NCBI GenBank assembly: GCA_947258795.1
Contig: CAMYJU010000007.1
Span: 129,392-193,391, forward strand
DNA: 64,000 nucleotides
Reading direction: 5' to 3'
From: an uncultured Gammaproteobacteria bacterium
GTDB lineage: Bacteria > Pseudomonadota > Gammaproteobacteria > DRJJ01
The notes under the pieces: model-generated
What the model saw: only the letters and a program-made list of their open reading frames with translations
Told to the model about the DNA's origin: nothing
Database searches by the model: none
Shown here: positions 6,395 to 55,428 of the stretch, one piece after another
How positions within the stretch are numbered: the first letter of the stretch is position 1
How the letters are laid out: the number at the start of each line of letters is the position of its first letter
Made by a program: the position numbers and the translations under genes

Positions 6395-6476
6395 CCAGGC
6401 TTTACAATAACAAATCACGTTTATGTAAAATAATATAACGGACTTTAATCCGATGTGGGAAAAGTAGTACCACCCA

Positions 6477-31800: not shown

Positions 31801-32265
31801 ATGTTACGTCCTTTCCTGGTACTGTTAGCTTTTCTGATCATGCCCGTAGCGCTGGCGGACAAGCCGGTTGGCTATGAATTTTATACCTTCGACAAAGCCA
31901 TGCTGCAGGCAAAGACGCAGGGAAAACCGCTATTTGTCTACTTTGGTCGTTATGGCTGTGGCTATTGTGACAAAACCAATAAGGAAGCCTTTAGCGATGA
32001 GCAGGTACGCAAAATTTATAACAGTCACTATGTGCTCGCTTATGTCGATTCTGAAAGCGGCAAGCGCCTGCGTCTGCCCAGTGGTGAACGCATTGCCGAG
32101 CGTGAAGTCGGCACCCGGTACAACGCCTTCGTGACGCCTGTATTTACCTTTATGACTGAGACAGGTGAAGTCTTTCACAGGATGGTTGGTGTACAACGAA
32201 TCGAGGATTTACTATCAGCCCACAAAATCGTGCAACAGAAACTGGCCAATACCGTCAAACCATGA
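31801..32265 (+). CDS. Periplasmic thioredoxin-fold protein (CxxC)
   Basis: Signal peptide plus FVYFGRYGCGYCDK thioredoxin-like active site. Confidence 0.6.
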   Translation: MLRPFLVLLAFLIMPVALADKPVGYEFYTFDKAMLQAKTQGKPLFVYFGRYGCGYCDKTNKEAFSDEQVRKIYNSHYVLAYVDSESGKRLRLPSGERIAEREVGTRYNAFVTPVFTFMTETGEVFHRMVGVQRIEDLLSAHKIVQQKLANTVKP

Positions 32266-35406: not shown

Positions 35407-35940
35407 ATGAAGCTTTTTGGCAAGTCGTTTGTTGCAGTGCTGCTGATTGTATGTGTTGTGCCATCCGTGTCTGCGGGCAACTTCAAGGAATGGCTACTCG
35501 GTTCAGGGGCCAAAGCCCCCGAGCCTGTGCAACTGGATGTTTCGTCGGCGCAATGCATGAAATGCCACAATAGCAAGGACTCAGGTCATATCACTGTCAA
35601 ACATGCGGACTCACCAATGCAGTTCACGGCTTCAGGTCTGCAGACCAATCATCCGGTGGGTATGCATTATGGAAACTATGCGCTCAATCAACCGGCCAGT
35701 TTTCGTTCTCGCGCCACGCTCAATCCGAAAATCATGCTTGCCGGCGGCCGGGTGACCTGTATCAGCTGTCATGAGCAGAAAGAAAAGGATGTCAGTACAG
35801 CAAATGCAGCCAGGACCTATGGCAATGTACTTGCCGCCAGTGGTGGTTCGCTGTCCGGACTGGACATGTGTACTTCGAAAAAGACCTTGACGGTCGGCCC
35901 GAAAACATCGGACCTGTGCATGTCCTGTCATACGATGTAA
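35407..35940 (+). CDS. Secreted triheme c-type cytochrome
   Basis: Signal peptide. CMKCH, CISCH and CMSCH motifs. Confidence 0.75.
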   Translation: MKLFGKSFVAVLLIVCVVPSVSAGNFKEWLLGSGAKAPEPVQLDVSSAQCMKCHNSKDSGHITVKHADSPMQFTASGLQTNHPVGMHYGNYALNQPASFRSRATLNPKIMLAGGRVTCISCHEQKEKDVSTANAARTYGNVLAASGGSLSGLDMCTSKKTLTVGPKTSDLCMSCHTM

Positions 35941-36741: not shown

Positions 36742-37010
36742 AAAGTCATCATATCAGCTCGTCTGGTTTTATACAGTACCCGTATAAACAGGGCCGGCAG
36801 TATCTATTGAATAAGTATACTCAGGGCTGGTGTTTTTTTACTATTAAATGCAGGGAATATTGATACTGGTCAATTTTGGTATACGTTTATTGTTGTAGGG
36901 TAGAAACGCATTGTATAAAAGACCCTGAACGATGACGTATCCTGGTGCGGGCGATACGCACAAAACAGGGGGGAGAGAGGGTGTTGAGAAGATGGCGGTA
37001 TCGCAACAGC

Positions 37011-37982
37011 ATGGTATATCTGCTCCATTCAGCTGTTATGGCCTGCATGCTGGCACCTGTTGCATATGCGGACAGACCGGACCCCGGAGACGTCCAGCAG
37101 CTGATCAGAAAGGCTGAAGCGATACCGGGCATGATAGAGGAAAACCGGCTGGAGACATCGCAAATCCCCGATCCACACTGGCGTAAGCAGGCCTGTCTGG
37201 CCTGTCATACCAGTGAGCCGGCAAAAGGTGCGCCGCTACTGAAAACCGGCGGGGATGGTAGCTGTTTTTACTGTCATCGCCCGGAGGATCACACCGTGAT
37301 TCATCCTGCCCGTCTTGAGCCTGGTAAAAGAATGCGAGCGCAAATGTCGCCGGAATTCAGACAGCGGCTGATCAAGGGCAGGAAAACAGACTGCCTGACC
37401 TGTCATGACATTTTATTGCAGTGTAAAAAACGACCAGCGGCGATGCGTGTGCGTAACAGTGCCTTTCTGCGTGGCGGCTATTACAAACATCGTACTGGTG
37501 TGTGCTACCAGTGCCATAACCGGGAAAGCTATCAAAAACTGAATCCGCATGACCAGGTCAGTGATCAGGGTGTGCTCAACAAGGACAAATGCCTGATCTG
37601 CCATCGCAAGCTGCCGAGGCAGGATGGTGGTCGGGTCGGTGCAGGGGCTGCGATGCATACCGATCCGGACTGGTCGGCGATCTGCCTGAACTGCCATCGT
37701 TGGCAGCCACATCCTGGAGGCAATATGGCCATGTTTTCGGGGGGTAAGGCGCCGGACCATCTGGTGGTACCGGATGACGGGATACGCGACAGGCTTGCGA
37801 CCAGGACGCGGGAACTGAATCTGGATATGCCGCTGGAGCCTGACACCGGCAAGGTCTACTGCGCAACCTGTCATAATCCGCATGAGCGTGGCGTGATCAA
37901 GAAGGCAGGTCTGGCTAAGGGGGCGGATGAAAAAAATCGATTGCGGGCGCAACGAATCTGTATCAATTGTCATGAAAAATGA
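37011..37982 (+). CDS. Periplasmic octaheme c-type cytochrome
   Basis: Signal peptide MVYLLHSAVMACMLAPVAYA. Eight CxxCH motifs: CLACH, CFYCH, CLTCH, CYQCH, CLICH, CLNCH, CATCH, CINCH. Confidence 0.8.
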   Translation: MVYLLHSAVMACMLAPVAYADRPDPGDVQQLIRKAEAIPGMIEENRLETSQIPDPHWRKQACLACHTSEPAKGAPLLKTGGDGSCFYCHRPEDHTVIHPARLEPGKRMRAQMSPEFRQRLIKGRKTDCLTCHDILLQCKKRPAAMRVRNSAFLRGGYYKHRTGVCYQCHNRESYQKLNPHDQVSDQGVLNKDKCLICHRKLPRQDGGRVGAGAAMHTDPDWSAICLNCHRWQPHPGGNMAMFSGGKAPDHLVVPDDGIRDRLATRTRELNLDMPLEPDTGKVYCATCHNPHERGVIKKAGLAKGADEKNRLRAQRICINCHEK

Positions 37983-38029: not shown

Positions 38030-39151
38030 ATGACGATCAGGCAATCCGGGTTTCTTCTGTTCTGTTTCATACTGCTGGGCGTATTGTACTCGGGGGGGCT
38101 GCAGGCCTTTGTCGACGAAGAGGGTTGTCTGCTTTGTCATAAGTACCCGAAGATGGGTCGTGTAACGGAAGAGGGTACGCGGCGCTCCTACTATGTCATT
38201 CCACACGTGTTTGGCAAGACCGTACATCGCAATGTCCCTTGTCGTGACTGCCATACCAATATCAAGGAACTGCCGCACCGTGAAGTGAAGACCGGTGTCA
38301 CCTGTGATGCCGAGTGTCATTCAGTCAAGAACCCGGCGACCGGCAAGAACTTCAGTCACAAGCCGATTTACGAGGTCTACCGCAAGAGTGTGCACGGTCG
38401 TGACAAGATAGAAGAAGGTCTGGAGGCCGACAAGCCCTATTGCATTAGCTGTCACACCAATCCGTTGTACAACCCGGGTGAAAAGAGCATACCAAAAAGA
38501 ATTGCCGATCGTTGCGTGGTCTGCCATGAAGACCGAACCTTCGTCGAGGCCTGGTACAACCATACCAGCAGGCGTATCCGTGACATCAAGCGTTCGTCTG
38601 CAGAGATCGTTACACTCTGCTCATCCTGCCATGGCGACAAGAAACTGATTGAACGTCATATGAAAGCGGCTACTGAAGGCGACAAGGAGCTGGGCAGGAA
38701 GTTTGCGGTTGCATCAGAATCATACGACAACAGTTTCCACGGCAAGGTAACCCGTTATGGCTTTAGTGAAGCGGCCAATTGTCTGGATTGTCATGCTGAT
38801 TACGACAACTATTACCTGTCGGTTCACGATATAAGGCCCTCGCGTGATCCCTTGTCCCCAGTGCATGATGAAAGGCGATACAAGACCTGTCAGCGTTGTC
38901 ATACCTATGCGAACGAAAACTATGCGACCATCGATCCGCACCCGACCAAGGATCGAGAAAGTAACCCCTTTGTTTTCTGGGCAGAAGCGATTTATAACTG
39001 GGTCGCCTATGTCGTCATTGCCGGTCTGATCAGTCTGGCAATGTTCGAGACCCTGGGGCGCAGACGCGATGGCGCCGGCTGGAGACTGCGTCATGGTTCG
39101 TCCTGGTGGCGCAGAAGCCGCAGGGGCAAGAACAGGGATCGTGTGATCTGA
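38030..39151 (+). CDS. Multiheme c-type cytochrome (about 8 haems) with a C-terminal TM anchor. Module A; paralog of 45464-46561.
   Basis: CLLCH, CRDCH, CDAECH (Cx3CH), CISCH, CVVCH, CSSCH, CLDCH, CQRCH. C-terminal hydrophobic VAYVVIAGLISLAMFETL. Collinear with the 45464 protein. Confidence 0.8.
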   Translation: MTIRQSGFLLFCFILLGVLYSGGLQAFVDEEGCLLCHKYPKMGRVTEEGTRRSYYVIPHVFGKTVHRNVPCRDCHTNIKELPHREVKTGVTCDAECHSVKNPATGKNFSHKPIYEVYRKSVHGRDKIEEGLEADKPYCISCHTNPLYNPGEKSIPKRIADRCVVCHEDRTFVEAWYNHTSRRIRDIKRSSAEIVTLCSSCHGDKKLIERHMKAATEGDKELGRKFAVASESYDNSFHGKVTRYGFSEAANCLDCHADYDNYYLSVHDIRPSRDPLSPVHDERRYKTCQRCHTYANENYATIDPHPTKDRESNPFVFWAEAIYNWVAYVVIAGLISLAMFETLGRRRDGAGWRLRHGSSWWRRSRRGKNRDRVI

Positions 39152-39207
39152 GCGGTTCAGGTTATTCAAAACAACATGCAGCAGAGTAAAAACCGGGTAG
39201 GAAACAA

Positions 39208-40170
39208 ATGAAATTATCTGATGAAGCGCAAAAGATTCTGGAAACATCCATGCGTATCAACAAGACCAGCGATGCTGATCGCAAGGAGATCGAGGAACTG
39301 ATTCATCTCATGCCGAACGACAGGGTGCTGTTGTACAAGAATGTTGTATCGAACCCGATTGGCGATTTACCCAGGTACTCGGTGCATATCCGTATCCAGC
39401 ATATGCTCACCTTTGTTACCTTCCTGGCGCTGGCCTTTACCGGTTTGCCGGTTGCCTTCTATGACCATGTCTGGGCCGAGCCACTGAACACCATAGTCGG
39501 CGGGGTGGATGTGTCGCGTGTTATCCATCGTACCCTGGCTGTGGTCATGATCATGAGTATGATCTATCACATCTTTACCATTTCACTCGGACCACTGATG
39601 CAGGTGCTTAAAGGCCGGTTTGAAATAAGGCGTACGATTATTCCGTTAATGAAAGACCTGCGTGATTTCAAGAATGACATTCTGTATTTTGCCGGCCGGC
39701 ACGACCAGCGTCCTGAAATGGACAAGTTCATGTACAAGCAGAAGCTGCATTATTTTGCCGCTGCCTTCGGTAATATCGTGATGGTGGTGTCGGGTTCATC
39801 ATTCCTGTTTCCCGATATCTGGGCCAGTATCCTGCCGGCCAGTATGGCATCCAACTTTCAGGAGCTGATGCGTCTTTCTCATCCGCATGAAGCCCTGCTG
39901 GCATTGCTGGTTATCGCGTTCTGGCACTGGTACAACGTGCACCTGGCGCCAGGCCGGTTTCCGATGCAATGGACCTTCCTGACCGGCAAGATTACGCGTG
40001 AACACCAGATCGAGGAGCATTTTCTCGAATACCTGCGTAACCTGGTTGAATTGCCGGAAGAACGTTCCTATCTGCACGACATGCTGACGGCGCGTGAACT
40101 GCGCGAGGAAGGTCATGTGCATGAAATGCCCGAGGAGCCGCCGCTGGCCAGCGAGGAATCGTCATCATGA
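39208..40170 (+). CDS. Membrane b-type cytochrome subunit (Ni/Fe-hydrogenase/FdnI-type di-haem cytochrome b family). Module A.
   Basis: 4-5 TM helices with conserved His (HIRIQHMLTF, RVIHRTLAVV...YHIF, HPHEALLALLVIAFWHWYNVH). Paralog of 46575-47390. Confidence 0.6.
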   Translation: MKLSDEAQKILETSMRINKTSDADRKEIEELIHLMPNDRVLLYKNVVSNPIGDLPRYSVHIRIQHMLTFVTFLALAFTGLPVAFYDHVWAEPLNTIVGGVDVSRVIHRTLAVVMIMSMIYHIFTISLGPLMQVLKGRFEIRRTIIPLMKDLRDFKNDILYFAGRHDQRPEMDKFMYKQKLHYFAAAFGNIVMVVSGSSFLFPDIWASILPASMASNFQELMRLSHPHEALLALLVIAFWHWYNVHLAPGRFPMQWTFLTGKITREHQIEEHFLEYLRNLVELPEERSYLHDMLTARELREEGHVHEMPEEPPLASEESSS

Positions 40171-40301
40171 TGAAGCCATTGAAACCATACCAGAAGGTCA
40201 TCGCCTATGCGTCACTGGCGTTCGTTCTGGCATGGACCGCATTTGGCATATTTACCATATGGGTAATACTGACTAACGTATAACGTACAGAAGGTAGAAC
40301 A

Positions 40302-41369
40302 ATGCACGGAATTGAAAATGACAGCATGATCTTCATTATCCTGACAGTGCTGCTGTTCATGTTCCTGGGTATTGCCATCCTGGTCGTGATCGACCACAAG
40401 GCCAAGATCCCGGATCATTTTCACAGTGATCCGTTCTCGATCAAGGGCCTGCGCCGCGATCATCCGGGTATTTCATTCCTGACTACCATGATACTGTTTG
40501 CGATCATTGCCAGCCTGATCTTTGAGCTGACCATTACATTGGGGGAGCACTTTGGGATGTTTGCTGAAAAGGAACAACCCAAGTTGCTACAGGAACTCAA
40601 GGAGCAGCGCTTCAGCGAAAAGAACAGGCATTTTCATAACGAGCCTGAGGAAGATCTGGTAAACCTGGGCAAGAAACCGGTCTGTTTCTCCTGTCATGGC
40701 GATTATCCGCATTCCAAGGAGCGTATGATCAGGACCCTGCTTAACATGCACACCCAGTTTGTCGGTTGTATGACCTGCCATAATGACCCACGCAAGTTTG
40801 AAGAGGAGTCACTCAGTTTCGCCTGGCTGAATTACTCGGGGATAGAAGTAACCGGCAAGCCCTATGGTACCGGTATTGACCCGAAAACCGGCTATCTGCA
40901 GGAAACAGACGATTATTATTCCAAGATTGTTGCCTATAACAAGACCGGTAACGGAAATGTCTTGCTGGAAATCACCGAGGATGACGAGAAGGCACAGGAA
41001 TACCTGGAGATCAAGGACAAGCTGTCTGACAAGGATCGCGAGGCCGTGAAAAAGCAGTTTCACAGGACCGTCAGTCCCAAGGGGCGGTTCTGCTCGCGTT
41101 GTCACACCGCCGAGAATGATAGCTATCTGCCATTTCGTAAACTGGGATTCTCGGAAGACCGTATCTCGGATGTGACCAATCTGAATATTATCGGTATCGT
41201 GCAGAAATACAGAAAATTCTATTTGCCCAACCTGTTTCAGCAGGACATCTCTCTGCCCAAGGTGGAGTCCCTGATTGGCTCTGAAAAGTCCGACAAGGTC
41301 AAGGAGGCGGTGGAAGATCCGAAGGCATGGTGGCGGCGTACGTTTGATTCACCCAGCGGGAACGAATAA
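40302..41369 (+). CDS. N-terminally membrane-anchored triheme c-type cytochrome. Module A; paralog of 47384-48277.
   Basis: TM anchor MIFIILTVLLFMFLGIAILVVI. CFSCH, CMTCH, CSRCH. Collinear with the 47384 protein. Confidence 0.75.
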   Translation: MHGIENDSMIFIILTVLLFMFLGIAILVVIDHKAKIPDHFHSDPFSIKGLRRDHPGISFLTTMILFAIIASLIFELTITLGEHFGMFAEKEQPKLLQELKEQRFSEKNRHFHNEPEEDLVNLGKKPVCFSCHGDYPHSKERMIRTLLNMHTQFVGCMTCHNDPRKFEEESLSFAWLNYSGIEVTGKPYGTGIDPKTGYLQETDDYYSKIVAYNKTGNGNVLLEITEDDEKAQEYLEIKDKLSDKDREAVKKQFHRTVSPKGRFCSRCHTAENDSYLPFRKLGFSEDRISDVTNLNIIGIVQKYRKFYLPNLFQQDISLPKVESLIGSEKSDKVKEAVEDPKAWWRRTFDSPSGNE

Positions 41370-42301
41370 TGTGCTTGCGACTGCGCACCCTGTGTTCAGC
41401 ATCGCTGATTGTGCTGTCCTGTCTTTATGTGCCGCTAGTCGAGGCAGCGGCACAGGCCAGCCGGACAATCACGTATCTGCATGAAATAACCCGTAGCCAG
41501 GTGGGTGAGCTGGAACTGCCTACAGATGTCGCGGTGCATGAATCACGTCTTTACATAGTCGATAGCGGTAATAATCGCGTGGTCGTGCTGGGCCGTAATG
41601 GTGAAACGCAGTTCGCTTTTGGCAGTAAGGGAACGGCGAACGGTGAATTCAATGGTCCTGTCGGCATAGGTGTCGGTCATGATGGCAGGATATACGTCGC
41701 AGACACCGGAAATCATCGTATCCAGATATTTTCGGCAACGGGTAAGTTTCAGACTGCTATTGCCACTACCACCGGCGAGGTAAGGGTGCGGCCTATCGAT
41801 GTCGCGGTCGAACCAAAATCCGGACATATTTTTATTACCGGCAATAATAATCACCGGGTTATGGTGTATAACCATAGCGGACGCCTGTTGCGCGAATGGG
41901 GCGGGAATGGGGCTGCAATCGGAAAGTTTCGTTACCCGGCCACCATTACTGTGATGCCCGATGCCAATATAGGTGTTATTGATGTATTTAATACACGTGC
42001 ACAACTGTTTCAGCCTGATGGTCGTTTTGTTGTCAAAATAGGTGAATGGGGGGTCCTGCCCGGTCAGCTCTTTCGTCCCAAAGGGATTGCGATAGACCGG
42101 AAAGGTCATATCTATATATCGGACAGCTACCTGAACGTGATACAGGTATTCAATGACAGTGGCAAATTTCTGCATGTACTCACACAGAAGGATACTGCCC
42201 ACACCATGATGACACCTACAGGGATAGCGGTCGCGGCAGACAATCGCCTGTATGTAGCAGAGATGCTCAGGCACCGGGTTGCCGTTTACCAGATGGATTG
42301 A
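41369..42301 (+). CDS. Secreted NHL-repeat beta-propeller protein
   Basis: Signal peptide. Repeated LYIVDSGNNRVVVL, IYVADTGNHRIQIF and IYISDSYLNVIQVF NHL blades. TAATG overlap with the upstream gene. Confidence 0.75.
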   Translation: MCLRLRTLCSASLIVLSCLYVPLVEAAAQASRTITYLHEITRSQVGELELPTDVAVHESRLYIVDSGNNRVVVLGRNGETQFAFGSKGTANGEFNGPVGIGVGHDGRIYVADTGNHRIQIFSATGKFQTAIATTTGEVRVRPIDVAVEPKSGHIFITGNNNHRVMVYNHSGRLLREWGGNGAAIGKFRYPATITVMPDANIGVIDVFNTRAQLFQPDGRFVVKIGEWGVLPGQLFRPKGIAIDRKGHIYISDSYLNVIQVFNDSGKFLHVLTQKDTAHTMMTPTGIAVAADNRLYVAEMLRHRVAVYQMD

Positions 42302-42307
42302 TGGTCC

Positions 42308-44665
42308 ATGTCAGCACGCAGTCAGACACATAACTGGAAAAAGGAACTGTTTATTGGCTTTATCCTTTTTGCAGGCTTATGCAGCTGGCTGTTTCCGGAG
42401 GACGCCTCGGCCTTACGGCGCAAGACCTCAACCAATCGTGAGTGTGCAATTTGCCATATCATGTGGCTGGAAGAGTTCAAGCGCCAGGATGTCAAACCTC
42501 TGGTCCCCTATGATCCGCTACCCAGGGAAAAAACCGGTAAGCAGGATGTGGCCAGTACCGAACAGATGTGTTTTTCATGTCATGACGGATTTGTACTGGA
42601 CTCGCGATTCAAGTGGAAAAAAAACCGCTATAACCACCCGGTCGGGGTAAAACCCTCGGATGATGTGACCATACCGACCGCCGAAGGCAAGACTGTCTTC
42701 CCTATGAATGAAGATGGCAAGATATATTGCGGTACCTGTCATTCCGCGCATGGTATTGACTGGAAGGAAAAGGATACGACACTGTTTCTGCGCATCGATA
42801 ACAGAAACTCCAACATGTGTACGGCATGTCACCTGAACCGCGTTACGGGTCCCAAGGAGGGCAATCACCCGGTCAACAAGAAACTGAAAAAATTGCCGGC
42901 CGCGCTGGTCAAGGCGGGTTCACTGTTCAGTAACAAGAATGAGGTTATCTGCCAGTCCTGTCACCTTGCGCACGGCTCAGAACAGAAGAAAATGCTGGCC
43001 AGGCCGAACCATAATTCCGATCTGTGTTCCAGTTGCCACGTTCAGCAGGCACGTGTCAGGCAAACCAAGCATAATCTGACCATCCTGGCGCCATCGGCCA
43101 AAAACGAGAGAGGGGATGTCGCCAGCGAGTCTGGTCCCTGTAGCGCCTGCCATGTCCCGCACAAGGCCAACGCACCGAAACTGTGGGCGCGTCCGGTCTC
43201 AGTCAATCAGGACAGGGGTAGTGCCTATTGCCTGAGCTGTCACAAGGAAAAGGGTGTCGCACGCAAGAAATCGATCAACAAACACAGTCACCCGGTCGAT
43301 GTGCCACTCAGAAGGGCCGGGATTATTGCCAAAAGAGACGGCTGGATCAGCCAGGTAAAAAACAGGGCTGCACCCAAAAAGATAGTCAAACTGCCGCTGT
43401 TTGATAAAGCGGGTGGAAGGGTCAGTGTGGGAGGTAATGTTACCTGTATGACCTGTCATGATCCCCATCTATGGTCGCCTGATCATGGCCAAACGCCTGC
43501 CCGCGATTTGCGCAAGCTGGAAGGTGATGGTTCGAACAGTTTCTTGCGCATTGCCAATAACAGTGACAGCACCTTGTGCAAGAATTGTCATCGGGAGCAG
43601 GCGGCAGTGGCCTGGTCCAAGCATAACCTGCAGATCAGTGCGCCGGATCAGAAGAACAAAGACGGTATGACGGTTTCAGAAAGTGGAGTCTGCAGTGCCT
43701 GCCATGTGCCACATAACGGCAAGGGCGAGAATATGTGGGCACGCAAGATTGGTAAAAAGGGCAAGGGTGTGATGACGCTTTGTATTGGATGCCATGCCAA
43801 GGATAGCATGGCCGAAAACAGAACGACCGGCAAGCATAGTCACCCGGTGCATGTCAGCCTGAAAAAGTCCGGATTGACGACTGACCTGCCGTTGTTTACG
43901 AAGCATGCCCGGCGTGACGACAAGTATGGCAGGGTGGACTGTGCAAGCTGTCATAATCCTCATCAGTGGGACCCTGGCAATGCGATCGCCAGTTCGGGCA
44001 GGGATCCGGATACGGATGGTGACGCCAGCAACAGTTTCCTGCGTATCAGGGCCAGCGGCAAGGCCAGGCTGTGTGTCAATTGTCATAAGGACCAGGCAGG
44101 ACTGATCGGTACTGATCATGACTTGTCAGTGACTGCGCGCAACGGCCTGAATGCCAGGGAACAAACTGTCAGGCAGTCCGGGCCTTGCGGGCAGTGTCAT
44201 GCTGTACATCATGCAGAATTGTCACGACGACTGTGGGTGCAAAAGGCTGGTAGCAGCGGGAATAGAACGGAGAAATTATGTACTGGCTGTCATAGCAGAC
44301 AGGGCGTCGGACGTAAAAAGGTGCCGGCGGAACTCGATCATCCGCCTCGCGTCTTGTCTGTCAACAAGGGTCGCTTGAGAGAGGGCGACAGGAACAGGCA
44401 GCAGGTGCCGGTATTTACCGAGCAAGGCAAGTCAGATGATGTGGGCATGATTTCCTGCCTGACCTGCCATGATCCGCATCAATGGAACGCAAGCAGCCAG
44501 AAGGCAGGTACCGGCAAGAATCTCGAAGGCGACGTGCGCAATAGTTTCCTCCGCCATACCGGTACCGAGTACTTTCTGTGTGCAGATTGTCATGGCGAGG
44601 ACTCATTGTATCGCTACAAGTATTTCCACTGGTCCAAATCCAGGTCGGATAAGAACAAGAAATGA
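42308..44665 (+). CDS. Very large periplasmic c-type cytochrome with 18 haem-binding motifs
   Basis: 785 aa. Signal/anchor helix. I counted 18 CxxCH motifs, many in the Cx2CHxxH doubled style (CGTCHSAH, CQSCHLAH, CSACHVPH x2, CMTCHDPH, CASCHNPH, CLTCHDPH). Confidence 0.85.
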   Translation: MSARSQTHNWKKELFIGFILFAGLCSWLFPEDASALRRKTSTNRECAICHIMWLEEFKRQDVKPLVPYDPLPREKTGKQDVASTEQMCFSCHDGFVLDSRFKWKKNRYNHPVGVKPSDDVTIPTAEGKTVFPMNEDGKIYCGTCHSAHGIDWKEKDTTLFLRIDNRNSNMCTACHLNRVTGPKEGNHPVNKKLKKLPAALVKAGSLFSNKNEVICQSCHLAHGSEQKKMLARPNHNSDLCSSCHVQQARVRQTKHNLTILAPSAKNERGDVASESGPCSACHVPHKANAPKLWARPVSVNQDRGSAYCLSCHKEKGVARKKSINKHSHPVDVPLRRAGIIAKRDGWISQVKNRAAPKKIVKLPLFDKAGGRVSVGGNVTCMTCHDPHLWSPDHGQTPARDLRKLEGDGSNSFLRIANNSDSTLCKNCHREQAAVAWSKHNLQISAPDQKNKDGMTVSESGVCSACHVPHNGKGENMWARKIGKKGKGVMTLCIGCHAKDSMAENRTTGKHSHPVHVSLKKSGLTTDLPLFTKHARRDDKYGRVDCASCHNPHQWDPGNAIASSGRDPDTDGDASNSFLRIRASGKARLCVNCHKDQAGLIGTDHDLSVTARNGLNAREQTVRQSGPCGQCHAVHHAELSRRLWVQKAGSSGNRTEKLCTGCHSRQGVGRKKVPAELDHPPRVLSVNKGRLREGDRNRQQVPVFTEQGKSDDVGMISCLTCHDPHQWNASSQKAGTGKNLEGDVRNSFLRHTGTEYFLCADCHGEDSLYRYKYFHWSKSRSDKNKK

Positions 44666-45463
44666 TGTCGCACATCCTGAATACACGGGTAGCAGCGGGC
44701 TGGTGGTATGGAGGACGTTAATCGGGTTGCCTGGGGTGTGGTTTTTATGCTCGGAGCTGCGGTATTTGCGTGGCTGGAGTGGCGTGATGATGACTGGTCG
44801 GCCATGGGCTGGTTTATTCTGACCAGTTTGTGGTCGGCTGTATGTGGTATCGGTTATACTGTCGCGCATTGGTTTCTGGAAAGAAAAGACCGGCCTAAGA
44901 CTGATTGAATCTGTACAGATGAAGATAGTTATTCAGTGTTGAAAAGGAAGCGGGTTGTTCTATATTTAAAACAGATTTAAATGGAATTAGTGTTCAGGGA
45001 ATACAATCAGTTTGCTGCCAGATAAGAGATCACAAGCAACTCCAGAGGAGAGTTGGGATGAGCAAACAAGACAATCAACTAAAAAAATCCTGTGTGTGGT
45101 GTATCAGTGCTGCGATAGCACTGATTCCGATAGCGATAATCGTCTGGTATTTGTTTTTTCGCTAACAGACCGGTGTAAACGTAAACGAACGTTACGGGTG
45201 TTTATGGATCGATCTGGCTTGATCTGAATCAAGAATATGATCGTATTGATCCTATATAATCTTTTTATAGTCTAGTTAAGTATATAATCAGATACTGAGT
45301 AGATTGTAACAATAATAAGGGATCATGGAATTGTTGGTTGCGTTGAAACAAGCCCCTGTTAACAGTGATGCCCATCCAGCGGCATCATGGGCTCGTTTTA
45401 CGTCCTGTTACCCTTTCAGCTTCCCGTACGATTATTCATCTTGCCTGCGAGGGCTCGTGTGCC

Positions 45464-46561
45464 ATGCATGAATACAGATTCCACCAGGTGCTCCTGATAT
45501 TAATCGTGTTATTTGTTGCTACTATACCGCCCGGGGAAGTCCAGGCAGGTGAGGAGCTCAATTGCCTGATCTGTCACAAGCACAGGGGGTTGAGCCGGAT
45601 TGATGAAAACGGCAAGTTCAGACTGTTTTATATCAATAACGAATTGTTCGAGTCCGGTCCGCACCGTCGTAACAATTGCCAGGACTGTCACACAGATATT
45701 GTTCGCATCCCGCATGACCCGGCAAAAAAAGTGGATTGCACCCAGCAATGCCATGTTGTCGAGCCTTCCGGCAAGGCAAGGTTTTCACACAAGCCAATAG
45801 CCGAAACGCTTGCAATGAGTGTACATGGCAAGCTTGATGCAGAGGGCAAGCCAAAAAAATACCAGGAGGACTATCCCGGTTGCAAAGACTGTCATGATCA
45901 ACCATTGTATCGTCCGCTATCGGTTTTCAAGGGGGAGCCCAGGTCCGGTATTTCCGAACGGAGTATCAGCCGCTGCAAAAGCTGTCACCGTACCGGTAAC
46001 TTTGCCGAGGATTTCTATGAGCATGTTACCTCACGTCTGCGCAAGGGCCGTTTCCCGCTGGAAACCATAGAGGTGTGTGCCAAGTGTCACCAGAACCCGG
46101 GCTTCCTGGAGCGACATGAGCTCGATGATGCGGTAACGACCTACGAGGAGACCTTCCACGGTAAACTGATCAAACTGGGTTCTGAGCGCACACCGGACTG
46201 CCTGGACTGTCATGTGGTCGAAGGTGAAAATACGCATCTGATCGAGGCGAAAACAGTGCCCACATCAGCCACCAACAAGGCCAATGTTGGCAATACCTGC
46301 AGGGCCTCTGATTGTCACAAGAAGGCCAGTGCACAATTGGCCAGTTTCCAGACTCATGTGACCTATGAACGGGAAAAATACCCGATGCAGTTCTACATGC
46401 TGATGTTCTTCAAGGCATTGATGGCGGTTATCCTGTATTTCTTCCTGACCATGATCTTCTTCGAGCTAATGCGGCGTCTGTTCCCGGCATTTGCATTCTT
46501 TAAAGAGAGCAAGGCTGATGACACGGATACCAGGCCGGCATTAAAAGATAGGGAACAATAG
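45464..46561 (+). CDS. Multiheme c-type cytochrome (about 8 haems) with a C-terminal TM anchor. Module B.
   Basis: Start MHEYRFHQVLLILIVLFVA. CLICH, CQDCH, CTQQCH (Cx3CH), CKDCH, CKSCH, CAKCH, CLDCH, CRASDCH (Cx4CH). C-terminal TM MLMFFKALMAVILYFFLTMIFF. Confidence 0.8.
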   Translation: MHEYRFHQVLLILIVLFVATIPPGEVQAGEELNCLICHKHRGLSRIDENGKFRLFYINNELFESGPHRRNNCQDCHTDIVRIPHDPAKKVDCTQQCHVVEPSGKARFSHKPIAETLAMSVHGKLDAEGKPKKYQEDYPGCKDCHDQPLYRPLSVFKGEPRSGISERSISRCKSCHRTGNFAEDFYEHVTSRLRKGRFPLETIEVCAKCHQNPGFLERHELDDAVTTYEETFHGKLIKLGSERTPDCLDCHVVEGENTHLIEAKTVPTSATNKANVGNTCRASDCHKKASAQLASFQTHVTYEREKYPMQFYMLMFFKALMAVILYFFLTMIFFELMRRLFPAFAFFKESKADDTDTRPALKDREQ

Positions 46562-46574
46562 CGAGGGTAGGAGC

Positions 46575-47390
46575 ATGTCAAAATATGATCCGATTGTATA
46601 TAAAGACGGCAAGCGCTATTTCTACCGATTTTCGGCCCATCAACGTATTCAGCACGTGGTCCTGTTCAGCTCTGTGCTGTTGCTGGCATTGACAGGCTTT
46701 CCATTGCGTCATGCTGATGAGGCCTGGGCAAAACCGCTGTATGCCGCCCTGGGTGGACCCGAGGTTGCACCAACGATACACAGGGTTGCAGGTTCGGTAC
46801 TGCTGGTACTGTTTGTCTACCATACGATTTACTGGATAGTGAAATTTATCAAGAATGACCTGGGCAAGTTGAAAAAGGAAAACCGCCTGACCCTGGGTAC
46901 TGGTATCAAGGCCTTTTTTACCCAGGAAATGGTGCCCAACAAGAAGGACTGGTACGACATTATCCATCTATGGAAATACCTGCTGTATTTCACCAATCGC
47001 CCGCCCCGGCATGAACGCATGTCATGGCGTGAAAAATTCGATTATTTTGCTCCGTACTGGGGTGTACCGATCCTGGGGCCTGCCGGGGCGGTCCTGTGGT
47101 GGCGGGATGAGGTCTCGCATATACTGCCGGGCTGGGTATTGAACGCGGCGTATATCATGCATACGGACGAGGCCTTGCTGGCGATTCTGTTCCTGTTCTT
47201 TGTGCACTGGTATAACGTGCACTATGCGCCGGAGAAATTCCCGGCAGCCAAGGTCTGGCTAACGGGTTATTTGTCAGAAGATGAAATGATCCATGAGCAC
47301 TATGCCCACTATGTACAGGTCATGATCGAGGCCGGGTTGGAGGAAGAGATCCAGCAGCAACACTTCGGTGGGGAGCATTACGAATGGTAA
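46575..47390 (+). CDS. Membrane b-type cytochrome subunit. Module B.
   Basis: HQRIQHVVLFSSVLLLALTGFP...IHRVAGSVLLVLFVYHTIYWI is collinear with the 39208 protein. Confidence 0.6.
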   Translation: MSKYDPIVYKDGKRYFYRFSAHQRIQHVVLFSSVLLLALTGFPLRHADEAWAKPLYAALGGPEVAPTIHRVAGSVLLVLFVYHTIYWIVKFIKNDLGKLKKENRLTLGTGIKAFFTQEMVPNKKDWYDIIHLWKYLLYFTNRPPRHERMSWREKFDYFAPYWGVPILGPAGAVLWWRDEVSHILPGWVLNAAYIMHTDEALLAILFLFFVHWYNVHYAPEKFPAAKVWLTGYLSEDEMIHEHYAHYVQVMIEAGLEEEIQQQHFGGEHYEW

Positions 47391-48277
47391 AGCTGCTTAA
47401 AAAGATTATTTTCAAGCTCTATGTGCTGTGCCTGATGGCCTTTACTGTCTGGTACGGTTATTTCATGTATCCGCTGATATTCGGTTTTGAGGGCAAGGAA
47501 AAGGCGGCTGAATCATTGTTGGAAATGGGTGCGGCCGGCACAGAAGAGGAAAAGATGTTTGTCCGGCTGATTGCCGAACAGACCAAGACCAAAAAGACTG
47601 ACCTGGGTTACAGGGTGATCGACCAACCCTACATAGAGGGTCGCTTCCATCATATCGGCTTTACCATACAGCAGGACAATGCCAGTATCTGTGTACGCTG
47701 TCATGGCAATGTGCCGCATGATGAATCCAAGGAGGTGCGTAGCTTCCTGAACATGCATGCCTTTTATCTGGCTTGCGAGACCTGCCATTCCAGACCGGAT
47801 GAAGGGGTAAAGGAGTGGGCATTCCGCTGGTATGACAAGGATACCGGCACGATTACCAATAATCCGCAGGCACTGAAAGATATCGAGAAACTGTATCATA
47901 CCGAGCAGGAGATCAGTCAGTATCCAATCTATGGCAATTACGGTGCTAAAGTGGCGCCGACCCTGAATGACTTTGGTGAGACCCGATTGCTGCATGGTGT
48001 AAAGGAAATGATCTTTGTTGACCGCTTTGTTACCGAGCAGGCCCGCTTGCAGCCCGAGCAGAAATCGCAGATGAAAAAGGTCATTCATCGCAAGGTTACC
48101 AAGGATCCGGTGCCATGCAAGGACTGTCATCAGGAAGTGGGCCCGTATCTTCCGTTTGCAGAGCTGGGCTACCCACCATCACGTGTGCGTGAGTTGACCA
48201 ATGTCGCGGTCGTGAATATGATTCAGCGGTACAAGGAGTTTTATATTCCGAGTTTGCTTAAACCCGGTGGTGGTTAG
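47384..48277 (+). CDS. N-terminally membrane-anchored triheme c-type cytochrome. Module B.
   Basis: CVRCH, CETCH, CKDCH. ATGGTAA overlap with the upstream gene. Confidence 0.75.
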   Translation: MVKLLKKIIFKLYVLCLMAFTVWYGYFMYPLIFGFEGKEKAAESLLEMGAAGTEEEKMFVRLIAEQTKTKKTDLGYRVIDQPYIEGRFHHIGFTIQQDNASICVRCHGNVPHDESKEVRSFLNMHAFYLACETCHSRPDEGVKEWAFRWYDKDTGTITNNPQALKDIEKLYHTEQEISQYPIYGNYGAKVAPTLNDFGETRLLHGVKEMIFVDRFVTEQARLQPEQKSQMKKVIHRKVTKDPVPCKDCHQEVGPYLPFAELGYPPSRVRELTNVAVVNMIQRYKEFYIPSLLKPGGG

Positions 48278-49176: not shown

Positions 49177-50910
49177 TTACATGCCACCGCCACCGCCACC
49201 GCCACCGCCACCGCCACCCATGCACATGCCGCCACCAGGCATACCACCACCACCTCCCCCATAGGTACAGGGGTCATGGTTTCTGCCATGGCAGGTCAGG
49301 TAGCAGCCACCGGCCTCGGTGCCGGGGCCATCACTGAAAAACTCCAGTCGGCCAGAGCCGCTCTGTGACACCACATCCGTATCAAAGTTGATCAATCGGG
49401 GCTGCTGGCTGCCATGAGGGTCATGACAGACATTACAGGGCGTACTTAGGGTGCCACCGCCCATATGCTGTCCAGCACCGGTAATATGGCGGTTGTGCAG
49501 CGGGAAAGTCTGGTTGCCAAGAATGCTGGTGCGATTGTGACACTTGTAACACAAGGCATACGCAGAGGCGCTCTCCGTGGTCGGGTCCTGGGTCAGGAAC
49601 TGGCGCTCCAGGATTTGCGGGTAGGCGGAGCCATGTGGTCCATTCGGGCCGCCAGTATTGTTGTTGTTATGGCAGTCCGTGCATTCGATGATACTGCCGG
49701 ACGGGAACGGCATCCCGGTCAGGCTGGGTGTATTGGTATCAGCCGCGGTACCGACCACCGGATGGTAGGACGGGTTGCTGGTACTGAACTCGTTGCGCAC
49801 ATTGGTTGTGTTGAACTGCCTGGTCGTCGGTGGTGCCGGTTTATTGGTGCTATCGGCATGACAGCGATAGCAAAGTTCGTATTGCAGATTGATCGTGGTG
49901 ACCTCATTGCCGGCGTTGTTCACACCTCGCACCAGTGACAGCGGCCCGGACGGGGTGCCGCTTGCGCTGGCCGCATGTGGATTATGACAGTCGACACATT
50001 CCACATGACGGTTGCTGACGATAGCCGCTTCGGTCGGATCATGTATACCGGTGGTATTCATGATTGGATGACGTGAGAACTTGTTGAACTCGTTCTGGAT
50101 GTTCTGTGACGCGACCGAGCCGTCATGGCAGGTGTAGCAGACATTTTCTTCCGTTGCGCTGCGTAACAGACGCTGTTTGCCATTGGCCGAGTGGGGTAGG
50201 TGGCAGCTCTGACAGGCGTGATTGGCAACACTGTCACCGTTCCAGTTCTGGCTGGAGGTGCTATGTGAGCTGGCCGACCAGCCTTGCTTGATATGGCAGG
50301 TCAGGCACAGGGCCCCGGCGGTATTGGACTTGACCAGGAACATACCGAACTTGTCTTCGTGGGCATTGTGACAACTGGTACATTGTAATTGACCGCTGTT
50401 ATCCAGCTTGACGTCAGGGCCCAGGCTGCCCGCCGGGACCAGCTCGGTCGGTTTGGCGCCCTGGCTGTTGGAGTAGTCGAATGACACTGGGTGATCGTCG
50501 GACAGGTCCTTGCTCAGGTTGGCCGGACCGGCCGGCATGGTCGGACCACCGCTAACATTGACATCGGTGACACGCGAATTCAGCTCACCGAGTGCGATGG
50601 TGCCGTCATGACAGCTCAGGCACAGGATCGACGCGCCGGTCGGGTTGCCCGGTGTGGTCGCGATACTGGAGCTGGTATAAGGTGTGTAGGTGCCGCCCGG
50701 ATCACGCCGGTTCCATAATGGGCCCGATGGGGACGAGTTATGCGGCGTATGGCAGAACAGGCATATCTCGGATTCGCTGGTGGCCTTGATACTACCGGGG
50801 CCGCTGACAGACAGGTTATGCTTGGTGTTGGCGATCTGACCCGTCACCGTGCCCCAGTAAAGGCCGCTCAGGACCAGTAACAGCAATGTTGTATTTTTGA
50901 TATTTCTCAT
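49177..50910 (-). CDS. Secreted c-type cytochrome with about 12 haems (doubled-CxxCH style) and a poly-Gly/Met C-terminal tail
   Basis: Signal peptide. CLFCHTPH, CLSCH, CTSCHNAH, CLTCH, CQSCHLPH, CYTCH, CVDCHNPH, CYRCH, CTDCH, CYKCH, CNVCHDPH, CYLTCH. Tail YGGGGGGMPGGGMCMGGGGGGGGGGGGM. Confidence 0.8.
   Translation of the reverse strand: MRNIKNTTLLLLVLSGLYWGTVTGQIANTKHNLSVSGPGSIKATSESEICLFCHTPHNSSPSGPLWNRRDPGGTYTPYTSSSIATTPGNPTGASILCLSCHDGTIALGELNSRVTDVNVSGGPTMPAGPANLSKDLSDDHPVSFDYSNSQGAKPTELVPAGSLGPDVKLDNSGQLQCTSCHNAHEDKFGMFLVKSNTAGALCLTCHIKQGWSASSHSTSSQNWNGDSVANHACQSCHLPHSANGKQRLLRSATEENVCYTCHDGSVASQNIQNEFNKFSRHPIMNTTGIHDPTEAAIVSNRHVECVDCHNPHAASASGTPSGPLSLVRGVNNAGNEVTTINLQYELCYRCHADSTNKPAPPTTRQFNTTNVRNEFSTSNPSYHPVVGTAADTNTPSLTGMPFPSGSIIECTDCHNNNNTGGPNGPHGSAYPQILERQFLTQDPTTESASAYALCYKCHNRTSILGNQTFPLHNRHITGAGQHMGGGTLSTPCNVCHDPHGSQQPRLINFDTDVVSQSGSGRLEFFSDGPGTEAGGCYLTCHGRNHDPCTYGGGGGGMPGGGMCMGGGGGGGGGGGGM
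49184..49219. repeat. Hexanucleotide tandem repeat (CCACCG)x5 plus CCACCC. It encodes the poly-Gly C-terminal tail of the cytochrome at 49177-50910.
   Basis: Direct reading: ccaccgccaccgccaccgccaccgccaccgccaccc. Confidence 0.9.
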
Positions 50911-51959
50911 GGCTGATCACCAATATACCGAAATACCTGAATTCGACTATTGTGCGAATCAGCGATATAGATCATATTATCATGGCTGATATAGATTCCG
51001 GTAGGTAACAGGAACTCACCGGCAGCCTCTCCGCGATGACCGACACTCAACAGGAATTCTCCTGATTTATCAAAAACCTGAAAGCTGTGAAACAAGGCGT
51101 CGACGACATAAATATGACCATTTTTATCTGTGGCGACACCCTTGGGCCGGGACATATCGCCCGTTCCATCCCCATGTCGCCCGAATTTTCTTATAAAACG
51201 TCCTTCCAGATCGAAGGTCTGTACCCGGAAGTTCAGTGCATCACTGACCAGTAACTGATCATTGCGGTCTAGCCAGATCATACTCGGGAAGTTAAATTCA
51301 CCATTCCCGATGCCGCGTCGACCGATGGTGTTGACCAGTGTCCCGTCGAGATCATATACCTTTATATGATGACGACCAGCATCGACCACATACAGGCGCC
51401 GGCTTTTCTGGTCTACGAATAAGTTTGTCGGCTGATCCGGGGTAATCTTGAGGTCCAGTTTCTCAGCGGTATCGCTTCCGGGTTTGATGACATAGATACG
51501 GGCCTGTGCAGAATCCGTGATGTAGACCTCTCCCTGGGCGCCCAGGGCCAGTCCGGTCGGAGAAGGGATGGCCTGTTCGTCCTGGGTCAGGATCACCTTA
51601 TGCCTGCCATTTTTGGTGTCAAAGCGGTGTACGGCCTTGCTGCCCGGATCGGCAACAAAAATTTTACCCTCTTCGGTAGACAACACGGCCATCGGGCGTA
51701 CCAGCTGCCAGTCGGCCGCGCCGGTAAAAAAGTCCATGATCTGTTCGAAGAAGCCCTTGCTGATACCGAGATCACGCGGTGAGGTGAATGACCTGACATA
51801 GGCTATGCGCGCTTTAGCGGGTGACTCTGGCCAGACCCTGTCGATTTTAGCTGTAGCCTGCTCTGCTTTCCTGTCTGTTGTCGTGGTACATCCGGGCAAA
51901 ACCGTTGTGAGAATCAGCAGGTATGCTGTCAAACCGGGTTTTACTTGCCATGACATCAT
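50907..51959 (-). CDS. NHL-repeat lipoprotein
   Basis: Start MMSWQVKPGLTAYLLILTTVLPGC (lipobox) 3 nt after the porin stop. NHL blades LYVVDAGRHHIKVY, LLVSDALNFRVQTF, IYVVDALFHSFQVF and IYIADSHNSRIQVF. Confidence 0.75.
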   Translation of the reverse strand: MMSWQVKPGLTAYLLILTTVLPGCTTTTDRKAEQATAKIDRVWPESPAKARIAYVRSFTSPRDLGISKGFFEQIMDFFTGAADWQLVRPMAVLSTEEGKIFVADPGSKAVHRFDTKNGRHKVILTQDEQAIPSPTGLALGAQGEVYITDSAQARIYVIKPGSDTAEKLDLKITPDQPTNLFVDQKSRRLYVVDAGRHHIKVYDLDGTLVNTIGRRGIGNGEFNFPSMIWLDRNDQLLVSDALNFRVQTFDLEGRFIRKFGRHGDGTGDMSRPKGVATDKNGHIYVVDALFHSFQVFDKSGEFLLSVGHRGEAAGEFLLPTGIYISHDNMIYIADSHNSRIQVFRYIGDQP

Positions 51960-51961
51960 TT

Positions 51962-54064: not shown

Positions 54065-54128
54065 CTGATCTGCTGGCTTGATCGCTACCCGTCCCGTAAG
54101 ACCGACGAGGGACAAGACGTGTCATTGG

Positions 54129-55271: not shown

Positions 55272-55428
55272 GCCAATATTCCACCAATGTGCCAGCCACA
55301 AATATATCATGACTCGGTTTGAATACAGAGAGTCGAACGTATAGCAGACAAACAAAAACCCCGTCACCCAGGTATCAGGTGACGGGGTGTTTTGTTACAA
55401 TATTTCCTGCCTTGCTAGTAAGACGTGC

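Follow-up and report, generated by a model that had tools for sequence, protein, structure and literature searches.

Introduction

How electrons cross the periplasm, which is 20-30 nm wide, and how cytochrome nanowires connect to the cell are open questions. In OmcE filaments, each subunit interface has a histidine from one side serving as ligand to a haem on the other (PMC9473688; PMC12307469), and the free end of a filament is left with an "unsatisfied haem" (10.1101/2025.10.22.684050). The minimal omcE cluster of Desulfuromonadia encodes multihaem cytochromes, two beta-propeller lipoproteins, OmcE and a large beta-barrel (10.1101/2025.10.22.684050). At the inner membrane of Geobacter, the CbcA/CbcB architecture joins a heptahaem cytochrome with a C-terminal transmembrane (TM) helix to a dihaem cytochrome b (10.1101/2021.04.15.440034), and Cbc5 (cbcEDCBA) includes the further c-type cytochromes CbcC and CbcD (PMC11434368). 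The PCC3 system consists of a porin, an extracellular and a periplasmic multihaem cytochrome and an unannotated inner-membrane protein, with no mention of an NHL protein (He et al. 2017). Here we compare these systems with a locus in a 64,000-nucleotide (nt) stretch of DNA from an uncultured gammaproteobacterium (contig CAMYJU010000007.1, positions 129,392 to 193,391; hereafter, the window), in which an open reading frame (ORF) at 42308-44665 on the plus strand encodes an 18-haem c-type cytochrome. We file this protein as a multihaem periplasmic conduit made by covalent concatenation of OmcE-family units.

Results

Repeat architecture and homology to OmcE

Translation of the ORF from its ATG start gives 785 amino acids (aa), and a regular-expression count found exactly 18 CxxCH motifs, as the initial annotation had stated. 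Segment-wise BLASTP revealed strong internal repeats at offsets of 165-184 aa (E down to 5e-35), whereas a whole-protein self-BLAST showed the identity match only. Repeats had been proposed in the initial annotation, with a unit of two or three haems; the unit turned out to hold four haems in about 165-184 aa, and each unit consists of two "paired CXXCH" halves. The parts of the gene are as follows.

42308-44665, plus strand: whole gene of the 18-haem c-type cytochrome (ORF, 18 CxxCH, Pfam Paired_CXXCH_1)
42308-42412, plus strand: predicted Sec signal peptide, aa 1-35, with a basic n-region, a hydrophobic core and ASA before the predicted cleavage site
42413-42838, plus strand: head unit U1, aa 36-177, diverged and OmcE-like, haems at C46, C88, C141 and C171
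42839-43048, plus strand: half-unit, aa 178-247, with NHPV, CxxCHxxH (C215) and CxxCH (C240), and invariant H187 and H222
43049-43600, plus strand: tetrahaem unit U2, aa 248-431, 224.6 bits to the unit hidden Markov model (HMM) over HMM positions 2-172
43601-44095, plus strand: tetrahaem unit U3, aa 432-596, unit HMM 219.3 bits
44096-44602, plus strand: tetrahaem unit U4, aa 597-765, unit HMM 209.3 bits
44603-44665, plus strand: C-terminal tail, aa 766-785, with invariant H774 (YKYFHW)

The motifs lie at residues 46, 88, 141, 171, 215, 240, 278, 308, 380, 424, 462, 492, 545, 589, 627, 658, 717 and 758. The protein comprises a diverged six-haem head (one unit plus the half-unit), three canonical tetrahaem units and a histidine-bearing tail. 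The unit HMM matches U1 weakly (aa 76-175), and this unit is without both the N-terminal KHDL histidine and the first xxH of the canonical units; internal alignments align residues 186-330 with 352-514.

The repeat unit is homologous to OmcE. When a full-length ortholog profile was compared with all PDB sequences, the top two matches were 9YUQ_N (E 2e-7), from the OmcE filament of D. soudanensis (10.1101/2025.10.22.684050), and 7TFS_A (E 2e-5), from that of G. sulfurreducens. A single-unit profile likewise matched 7TFS (E 4.5e-8) and 9YUQ (E 5.7e-6); the matches after these were to NrfA, at about 6e-4. The window itself encodes an OmcE homolog (55429-56136), to which hhalign aligned the unit profile with 97.8% probability (E 8.6e-13) when built from 24 units and with 98.8% (E 1e-16) when deepened to 60 units. 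In this alignment, unit columns 2-164 correspond to OmcE residues 37-233, which make up nearly all of the mature subunit; the four haem motifs are collinear, and the histidine-bearing KHD and H-P segments are paired. As a negative control, the neighboring CbcA-like heptahaem cytochrome gave 50.7% over 48 columns only. Four histidines (H8, H38, H81 and H121) and the four haem motifs are invariant in the 60-sequence unit alignment, and the layout of the OmcE family (CxxCHxxH, CxxCH, CxxCHxxH and CxxCH in this order, with four histidines) is present in U2-U4 and partial in U1. Since the unit and OmcE align end to end, we identify the repeat as an OmcE-type tetrahaem subunit; the protein consists of such subunits fused covalently, head to tail.

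Structure prediction, proposed in the initial annotation as a check, gave a confident result for a single unit. The AlphaFold2 model of U3 from the 60-unit alignment reached a predicted local distance difference test (pLDDT) score of 82.4 and a predicted template modeling (pTM) score of 0.78, with about 16% helix at the haem motifs and the rest coil with little strand. This helix content is close to that reported for OmcE, whose secondary structure is about 17% helix and 3% strand (10.1101/2025.10.22.684050). The full-length model (30-sequence alignment) was unusable (pLDDT 41, pTM 0.25) and was discarded.

Within the family, haem number is quantized. A protein search with the 785-aa sequence returned 1158 relatives, of which 135 family sequences were examined (120 listed plus cluster members); among these, counts of 18 (n=30), 22 (n=5), 24 (n=84), 28 (n=8) and 32 haems (n=2) occurred. 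A 24-haem relative (P0107) comes from the cultivated Thiohalomonas denitrificans. Full units recognized by the unit HMM number three at 18 haems, four at 22 and 24, five at 28 and six at 32. A library of 50%-identity clusters holds 797 family members at E <= 1e-3 and 336 at E <= 1e-30, and the largest member has 48 haems in 2047 aa.

Haem motifs and conservation of the gene

The protein contains 37 cysteines and 44 histidines, a composition from which about 0.1 CxxCH motifs would be expected by chance (785 x (37/785)^2 x 44/785); with 18 present, the motifs are not a product of chance. Eight of the 18 carry a second histidine, the number given in the initial annotation, in the form CxxCHxxH, with two intervening residues; the one-residue spacing claimed there (CxxCH-x-H) is absent from the protein by regular expression. 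From the third motif on, CxxCHxxH and CxxCH alternate strictly. Neither CxxCK nor Cx3-4CH was found in the protein by the same means.

Domain models agree with this picture at a general level. Pfam PF09699 (Paired_CXXCH_1) matches five stretches with 142.3 bits (cut-off 20.6), and the doubled-CXXCH model TIGR01905 scores 95.8 bits (cut-off 25.2), which places the protein above the cut-off for a paired CXXCH domain. NCBIfam assigned no specific family, all of its equivalog matches falling far under their cut-offs; Pfam c7 and c3 matches (0-2 stretches) were taken as generic haem-motif matches only. Database names of the relatives are "cytochrome c3 family", "predicted CXXCH cytochrome family protein" or hypothetical.

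An identical NCBI protein exists (P0001), and together with 29 orthologs it makes up the 30 proteins with 18 CxxCH. These orthologs are 776-794 aa long, 50-76% identical and carry eight CxxCHxxH each; one further ortholog (P0095) has 17 CxxCH and seven CxxCHxxH. All 36 motif cysteines and all 18 motif histidines are invariant in the 30-sequence ortholog alignment. The initial annotation had named a frameshift, a motif miscount or a split gene as what would undo its description, and full-length orthologs with conserved motifs rule out such artefacts.

Signal peptide and location

The N-terminal hydrophobic helix noted in the initial annotation is present, and a hydropathy scan of the protein found no further TM segment, again in agreement with it. 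The helix is better read as a cleavable Sec signal peptide than as an anchor: the same layout of basic n-region and hydrophobic core recurs in all 30 orthologs, and in about 27 of the 30 a small-x-small (AxA-type) site closes the c-region about 10 aa before the first haem motif (RECAxCH), a conserved pattern that points to cleavage. The mature protein would accordingly reside in the periplasm.

Haem ligands and chain ends

Besides the motif histidines, exactly 18 further histidines are invariant in the ortholog alignment (H110, 148, 187, 222, 255, 285, 328, 387, 439, 469, 512, 552, 604, 634, 678, 724, 750 and 774). Bis-His ligation of most or all of the 18 haems is the best explanation of this pattern, which suits a protein of pure electron transfer whose haems are essentially all bis-His and which has no catalytic site. 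Because the extra invariant histidines are as numerous as the haems and CxxCK is absent, the protein does not have the marks of a multihaem enzyme of the NrfA or octahaem kind; an enzyme-type function was rejected, there being no open-site haem motif and the NrfB and NrfA models scoring far below their cut-offs. The multihaem electron-transfer nature assumed in the initial annotation is thus upheld by motif and histidine conservation in an exported, non-enzymatic protein.

In the fused protein, the (K/D)H(D/N)L of the next unit comes about 10 residues after the C-terminal CxxCH of each unit. Two invariant histidines, H750 and H774, are added at the C-terminal end, while the first unit has no N-terminal KHDL histidine. 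By analogy with the unsatisfied haem at the OmcE interface, the tail probably caps the last haem, with H774 as the candidate ligand. We infer a self-contained chain that is capped at both ends, of fixed length and non-polymerizing.

The first haem motif reads CAICHIMW (residues 46-53), as against CxxCHxPH in the canonical units. In U1, H110 and H148 are invariant and Met52 is near-invariant, which makes Met52 a candidate ligand and one His/Met haem at the N-terminal end a possibility.

Genomic context

The 18-haem gene closes a plus-strand cassette and is followed by a second inner-membrane module and by a convergent minus-strand cluster (49177-56136).

36945-37982, plus strand: 8-haem cytochrome, first gene of the cassette
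38030-39151, plus strand: CbcA-like cytochrome, 373 aa, with seven CxxCH, one CxxxCH and a C-terminal TM anchor
39208-40170, plus strand: dihaem cytochrome b, CbcB/FdnI-like, 320 aa, with Pfam Ni_hydr_CYTB, TM segments and one HX13H
40167-40283, plus strand: 38-aa micro-ORF with a single TM segment, overlapping the stop codon of the cytochrome b gene by 4 nt
40302-41369, plus strand: membrane-anchored trihaem cytochrome, 355 aa, with three CxxCH and TM starts at 3 and 54
41369-42301, plus strand: NHL six-bladed beta-propeller, 310 aa, with a signal peptide (Pfam NHL, 106 bits)
45365-48277, plus strand: second inner-membrane module, of the same type as the first, three genes, about 700 base pairs (bp) past the 18-haem gene
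45365-46561, plus strand: cytochrome of the second module, with six CxxCH, two longer motifs and a C-terminal TM segment
46575-47390, plus strand: cytochrome b of the second module, with two HX13H (H69/H83 and H182/H196)
47384-48277, plus strand: N-terminally anchored trihaem cytochrome of the second module
49177-50910, minus strand: 11-haem OmcE-like concatemer, 577 aa, with 11 CxxCH and one longer motif
50907-52076, minus strand: NHL beta-propeller, probable lipoprotein (VLPGC; Pfam NHL)
51962-54115, minus strand: probable outer-membrane beta-barrel, 717-aa ORF, true start probably later than called
54129-55367, minus strand: NHL beta-propeller, 412-aa ORF (Pfam NHL)
55429-56136, minus strand: full-length OmcE homolog, 235 aa (phmmer 9YUQ E 4.9e-25 and 7TFS E 1.4e-22, aligned to the C-terminus)

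The position between inner-membrane modules given in the initial annotation is confirmed by cytochrome b/c modules on either side (38030-41369 and 45365-48277). Coupling to the upstream NHL gene also stands, with a correction of its reported 7-nt gap to 6 nt, the NHL ORF ending at 42301 with its stop codon included. A promoter/terminator scan of the 700-bp gap 3' of the 18-haem gene returned chance level only. For the cytochrome b at 39208-40170, an NCBIfam match to the formate dehydrogenase gamma subunit fell below cut-off. Peptides 55-58% identical to the 38-aa micro-ORF product are called at the same position in three related loci (L003, L005 and L006), and the loci with a counterpart include one gammaproteobacterial and one Thiobacillus locus; the peptide probably belongs to the Cbc-like module as a small subunit that has escaped annotation. 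The two cytochromes b of the window differ in that the second-module protein has two HX13H and the cassette protein has one. Such an HX13H pair matches inner-membrane proteins encoded beside unassigned periplasmic multihaem cytochromes (He et al. 2017).

In gene content, the minus-strand cluster matches the minimal omcE cluster of Desulfuromonadia. Its 577-aa cytochrome is itself related to the repeat unit, aa 24-207 aligning to the unit profile with an hhalign probability of 98.6% (E 5.4e-16), and its mature N-terminus (QIANTKHNLS...ICVFCH) resembles the start of OmcE. From this likeness, it is a candidate filament base or anchor that could plug its N-terminal histidine into the filament. The barrel candidate has no Pfam match. 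It has a polar/aromatic composition and a single cysteine, which lies upstream of the probable true start, and its last residues are RRDF; the C-termini of all 12 homologs read ..RR[DET]F or ..QRNF, with Phe invariably in last position. These features make an undescribed outer-membrane beta-barrel family likely. As a separate observation, an omcE-type nanowire cluster (OmcE homolog, two NHL proteins, probable barrel and 11-haem cytochrome) here occurs in gammaproteobacterial DNA.

Two further regions of the window deserve mention. Just 5' of the cytochrome island, the plus strand encodes a thioredoxin-like protein (31801-32265) and a small trihaem cytochrome of 177 aa (35407-35940), and homologs of the latter recur beside the big cytochrome in several loci. 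Farther away, 4853-8066 and 15266-17927 (plus strand) encode a pyruvate-kinase-barrel-like protein, a CHAD-domain protein and permeases of a phosphate ATP-binding cassette transporter; these regions look phosphate- or polyphosphate-related and unrelated to the cytochromes.

Distribution and conserved synteny

A scan of species-representative genomes (185,579 species) found 433 loci with relatives of the 18-haem protein. Among the best 80 of these loci, nearly all from metagenome-assembled genomes and with a best identity of 58% (54-58% for the closest named relatives), gammaproteobacterial hosts include Thiohalophilus, Thiohalobacter, Thioalkalispiraceae, Sedimenticola, Acidiferrobacteraceae, Arenicellales and Ca. 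Thiodiazotropha; further hosts are Sideroxydans, Sulfuricella, Sulfurimicrobium, Nitrospirota, Desulfobacterota and Deferribacteres.

By phmmer-based synteny, the order 8-haem cytochrome, CbcA-like cytochrome, cytochrome b, trihaem cytochrome, NHL and big cytochrome is nearly universal, and the big cytochrome almost always closes the cassette as its last gene. In 64 of 67 loci, the big cytochrome has a same-strand cytochrome b module no more than 4 kb upstream. An NHL gene is directly upstream in at least 59 of 74, most commonly with a 4-nt overlap, and independent gene calls agree with this NHL-cytochrome synteny. In some genomes, genes of the second-module type directly precede the NHL gene and the big cytochrome.

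The outer-membrane module occurs in three arrangements: convergent, as in the window; on the same strand directly upstream (barrel, NHL, 11-haem cytochrome, cassette) in about 16 loci; and directly downstream as a Uet-type cluster in loci of the L003 type. In the latter, the 18-haem ortholog is directly followed by a full-length OmcE homolog (E 2e-24 vs 7TFS); that of L003 (12563-13405; L009-L014 likewise) is 31% identical to the OmcE of the window and is followed by a peptidyl-prolyl isomerase (PPIase), a barrel-sized protein, c7 trihaem cytochromes and two NHL genes. The NHL families differ in their signals, the upstream family being mostly of the signal peptidase I type and the barrel-associated family often having a lipobox. 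The synteny scan found no barrel homolog within 10 kb in several loci, and some loci with the cassette gave no omcE homolog within that distance.

Discussion

Proposed function

We think it fairly probable that this covalent OmcE-type concatemer serves as a fixed-length, insulated haem wire in the periplasm between a quinone module and an outer-membrane machine. The 18-haem protein would be made, together with a periplasmic NHL propeller, as the last product of the operon of a CbcBA-like quinol/quinone oxidoreductase. This module would trade electrons with the pool of quinones and hand them to the soluble 18-haem chain, whose OmcE-type array of stacked and T-shaped haems could carry them about 13.5-15 nm through the periplasm. 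The next stop would be the 11-haem OmcE-like cytochrome and the barrel, and then the OmcE filament; reverse flow may also occur. The simplest role for the coupled NHL propeller is that of a partner in docking or assembly. Linear OmcE-like stacking between units, length, partners and direction are all inferred. The mostly sulfur- and iron-oxidizing proteobacterial hosts favor electron uptake, though lineages of sulfate reducers also carry the system.

The initial annotation had suggested that the protein could span the periplasm by itself. The conduit role is retained here, but the estimated length weakens the second part of that claim. MtrA, with 10 haems, is about 8 nm long, which scales to about 15 nm for 18 haems, and a typical periplasm is 20 nm wide or more. 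OmcE filaments rise 29-30.8 A per four haems (10.1101/2025.10.22.684050), which gives about 13.5 nm for 18 haems if the units stack as in those filaments. Since 13.5-15 nm falls short of such a width, the 18-haem form is probably too short to bridge the periplasm by itself. The conserved partners, namely the membrane-anchored heptahaem on one side and the 11-haem OmcE-like cytochrome with its beta-barrel on the other, point to a multi-cytochrome relay.

Several limits and counterpoints apply to the periplasmic wire. Foldseek with the good U3 model gave no link to OmcE, and the full-length model being unusable, linearity and length are extrapolated from the parameters of the OmcE filament. It is the signal peptide that points to the periplasm, and, OmcE itself being extracellular, export past this compartment is possible. 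A unit-by-unit tally of ligands leaves the head one histidine short and the tail one over, so that "all bis-His" may be wrong for one haem. Finally, the upstream NHL gene is missing from betaproteobacterial loci with 22- and 24-haem forms.

Alternatively, the protein could be a trans-outer-membrane or surface component, either threading a 600-700-aa barrel as MtrA does in MtrB or being exported as a short nanowire. We consider this unlikely. In its favor, the units of the 18-haem protein share homology with a filament subunit found outside the cell, the protein has a signal peptide and no anchor, and a beta-barrel and propeller lipoproteins are encoded nearby; in the OmcE preprint, the barrel is proposed as a secretion or anchor device (10.1101/2025.10.22.684050). 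However, the barrel and the lipoprotein NHL are accompanied by the gene of the 11-haem cytochrome, which also has the OmcE-type N-terminal KH(D/N)L not seen on the 18-haem protein. The 18-haem gene is instead tied to a non-lipoprotein NHL and, in the 64 of 67 loci, to the cytochrome b operon, and in several loci no barrel homolog was found within 10 kb.

It is quite improbable that the protein is chiefly a periplasmic electron reservoir, a capacitor buffering redox swings as proposed for the Geobacter dodecahaem GSU1996 family. Strict operon linkage to quinone and outer-membrane modules, and a length that changes by whole OmcE units, speak more for a wire or ruler than for a simple store, even though many low-spin bis-His haems in one soluble chain and a haem number varying from 18 to 48 within the family would suit storage, an idea that has been raised for large periplasmic multihaem cytochromes (PMC10734462). 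The two roles are not exclusive.

Less probable still is a terminator or base unit that caps an OmcE filament rather than carrying electrons through the periplasm. The extra invariant histidines on the last unit and tail (H750 and H774) resemble the predicted "stopper" with "nine histidines, four haems" (10.1101/2025.10.22.684050), but the N-terminal unit is without the KHDL histidine by which it would plug into an OmcE subunit. That histidine is present in the 577-aa cytochrome, a member of the omcE cluster, and the cassette also occurs in loci where no omcE homolog was found within 10 kb. An artefact, whether a chance motif cluster or a gene misjoined or split by sequencing errors, has practically no likelihood: nothing was found in its favor, and it is already refuted by conservation, with 18 motifs against about 0.1 expected, orthologs of full length (29 with 18 CxxCH and one with 17) and the 433 related loci.

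Beyond the periplasmic wire lies a broader proposal, which is conceivable but doubtful: electrons might travel along one uniform OmcE-type chain of three pieces all the way between the quinone pool and a point micrometres beyond the cell, and the Uet system of cathode-oxidizing Tenderiales would be the same machine. The pieces would be the OmcE polymer outside the cell; a fused OmcE trimer of 11-12 haems in the barrel, its N-terminal histidine plugged into the filament base; and the capped 18-haem periplasmic piece, with a length set in four-haem (about 3 nm) steps (18, 22, 24, 28, 32 ... 48). Length would then act as a molecular ruler matched to the geometry of the envelope, and the NHL propeller would be the docking adaptor to the CbcBA-like module.

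Full-text searches of the literature yielded no account of fused OmcE repeats or of the present cassette; the OmcE preprint discusses only single-unit and five-haem variants (10.1101/2025.10.22.684050). Our data suggest that the haem architecture of OmcE nanowires also occurs inside the envelope, in a covalent, fixed-length form genetically tied to a quinone oxidoreductase. The family is widespread, mostly in uncultured sulfur- or iron-oxidizing Proteobacteria, Nitrospirota and Desulfobacterota. From it come concrete candidates for the periplasmic link and for the base of the filament, as well as a natural length series, from 18 to 48 haems, for the distance dependence of haem-wire conduction. 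It also links three separate literatures, on OmcE nanowires, Uet and Cbc-type modules.

Comparison with known systems

With MtrA/DmsE, the 18-haem protein would share a linear bis-His haem chain conducting towards or through the outer membrane; membership of that family was rejected, the NCBIfam model decahem_SO (TIGR03508) scoring 49.7 bits against a cut-off of 192.2. The dodecahaem "periplasmic nanowire" of the GSU1996 type is a polymer of c7 trihaem domains. It resembles the present protein in that a small cytochrome module is concatenated covalently into a long soluble periplasmic chain; the module there is a c7 trihaem and not an OmcE tetrahaem, and only generic haem motifs are common to the two.

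PCC3 likewise features a large periplasmic cytochrome (21-27 haems) for which a reach across the whole periplasm has been proposed (He et al. 2017; Hoover et al. 2023), and its hosts are similar (Sideroxydans, Sulfuricella). In our family, 24-haem relatives are paired with 11-12-haem cytochromes, which recalls the "24 and 12" haems of the PCC3 of Sideroxydans CL21. The window has a barrel, an 11-haem multihaem cytochrome and cytochromes b, within a gene content larger than that of PCC3 and with NHL genes outside its definition. The periplasmic cytochromes of PCC3, compared here by their description, may be related to the 18-haem family.

The likeness to CbcBA, compared by architecture, lies in the pair at 38030-40170, a C-terminally anchored heptahaem cytochrome followed by a cytochrome b of the Ni_hydr_CYTB type; the 18-haem gene thus stands in an operon with a dihaem cytochrome b and an anchored heptahaem, as expected of a Cbc-type operon. 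Unlike CbcBA and Cbc5, the cassette includes a long cytochrome of OmcE-type units, an NHL propeller and the 38-aa peptide, and no BccR-type regulator was identified near it, unlike CbcBA.

Uet (undecahaem electron transfer), from Ca. Tenderia electrophaga, is approached most closely by loci of the L003 type, which follow the order uetABCDE..GHI after the 18-haem ortholog, with a tetrahaem cytochrome in the uetA position, a PPIase, a barrel, c7 trihaem cytochromes and two NHL genes. The minus-strand cluster of the window resembles Uet in its tetrahaem cytochrome, barrel, two NHL proteins and an 11-haem "doubled CXXCH" cytochrome like UetJ, and it differs in being without PPIase, cupredoxin and c7 trihaems. 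The published description of Uet is, for its part, without an 18-haem cytochrome and without a cytochrome b cassette. Taking Uet by its description, the L003 gene order and the OmcE homolog in the uetA position suggest that the Uet system of cathode oxidizers is an OmcE-type nanowire system.

OmcE itself (GSU0618; DSOUD_2954) is a monomer of about 220-235 aa that forms a non-covalent extracellular polymer through a histidine donated across the interface. Each repeat of the 18-haem protein reproduces its pattern: K/D-H-D/N-L, CxxCHxPH..LW, CxxCH, H-P, LPLF, CxxCHxxH, FLR and CxxCH. An OmcE ortholog was nevertheless rejected as an identity for the protein, which has 785 aa in 4.5 fused units, no N-terminal histidine and two histidines at its tail, as against a single unit of about 220-235 aa. 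Unlike OmcE, the 18-haem protein has its 4.5 units fused by linkers of about 10 aa and shorter loops (165-184 aa per unit), its gene lies in an inner-membrane cytochrome b operon, and its chain appears to be capped and of fixed length.

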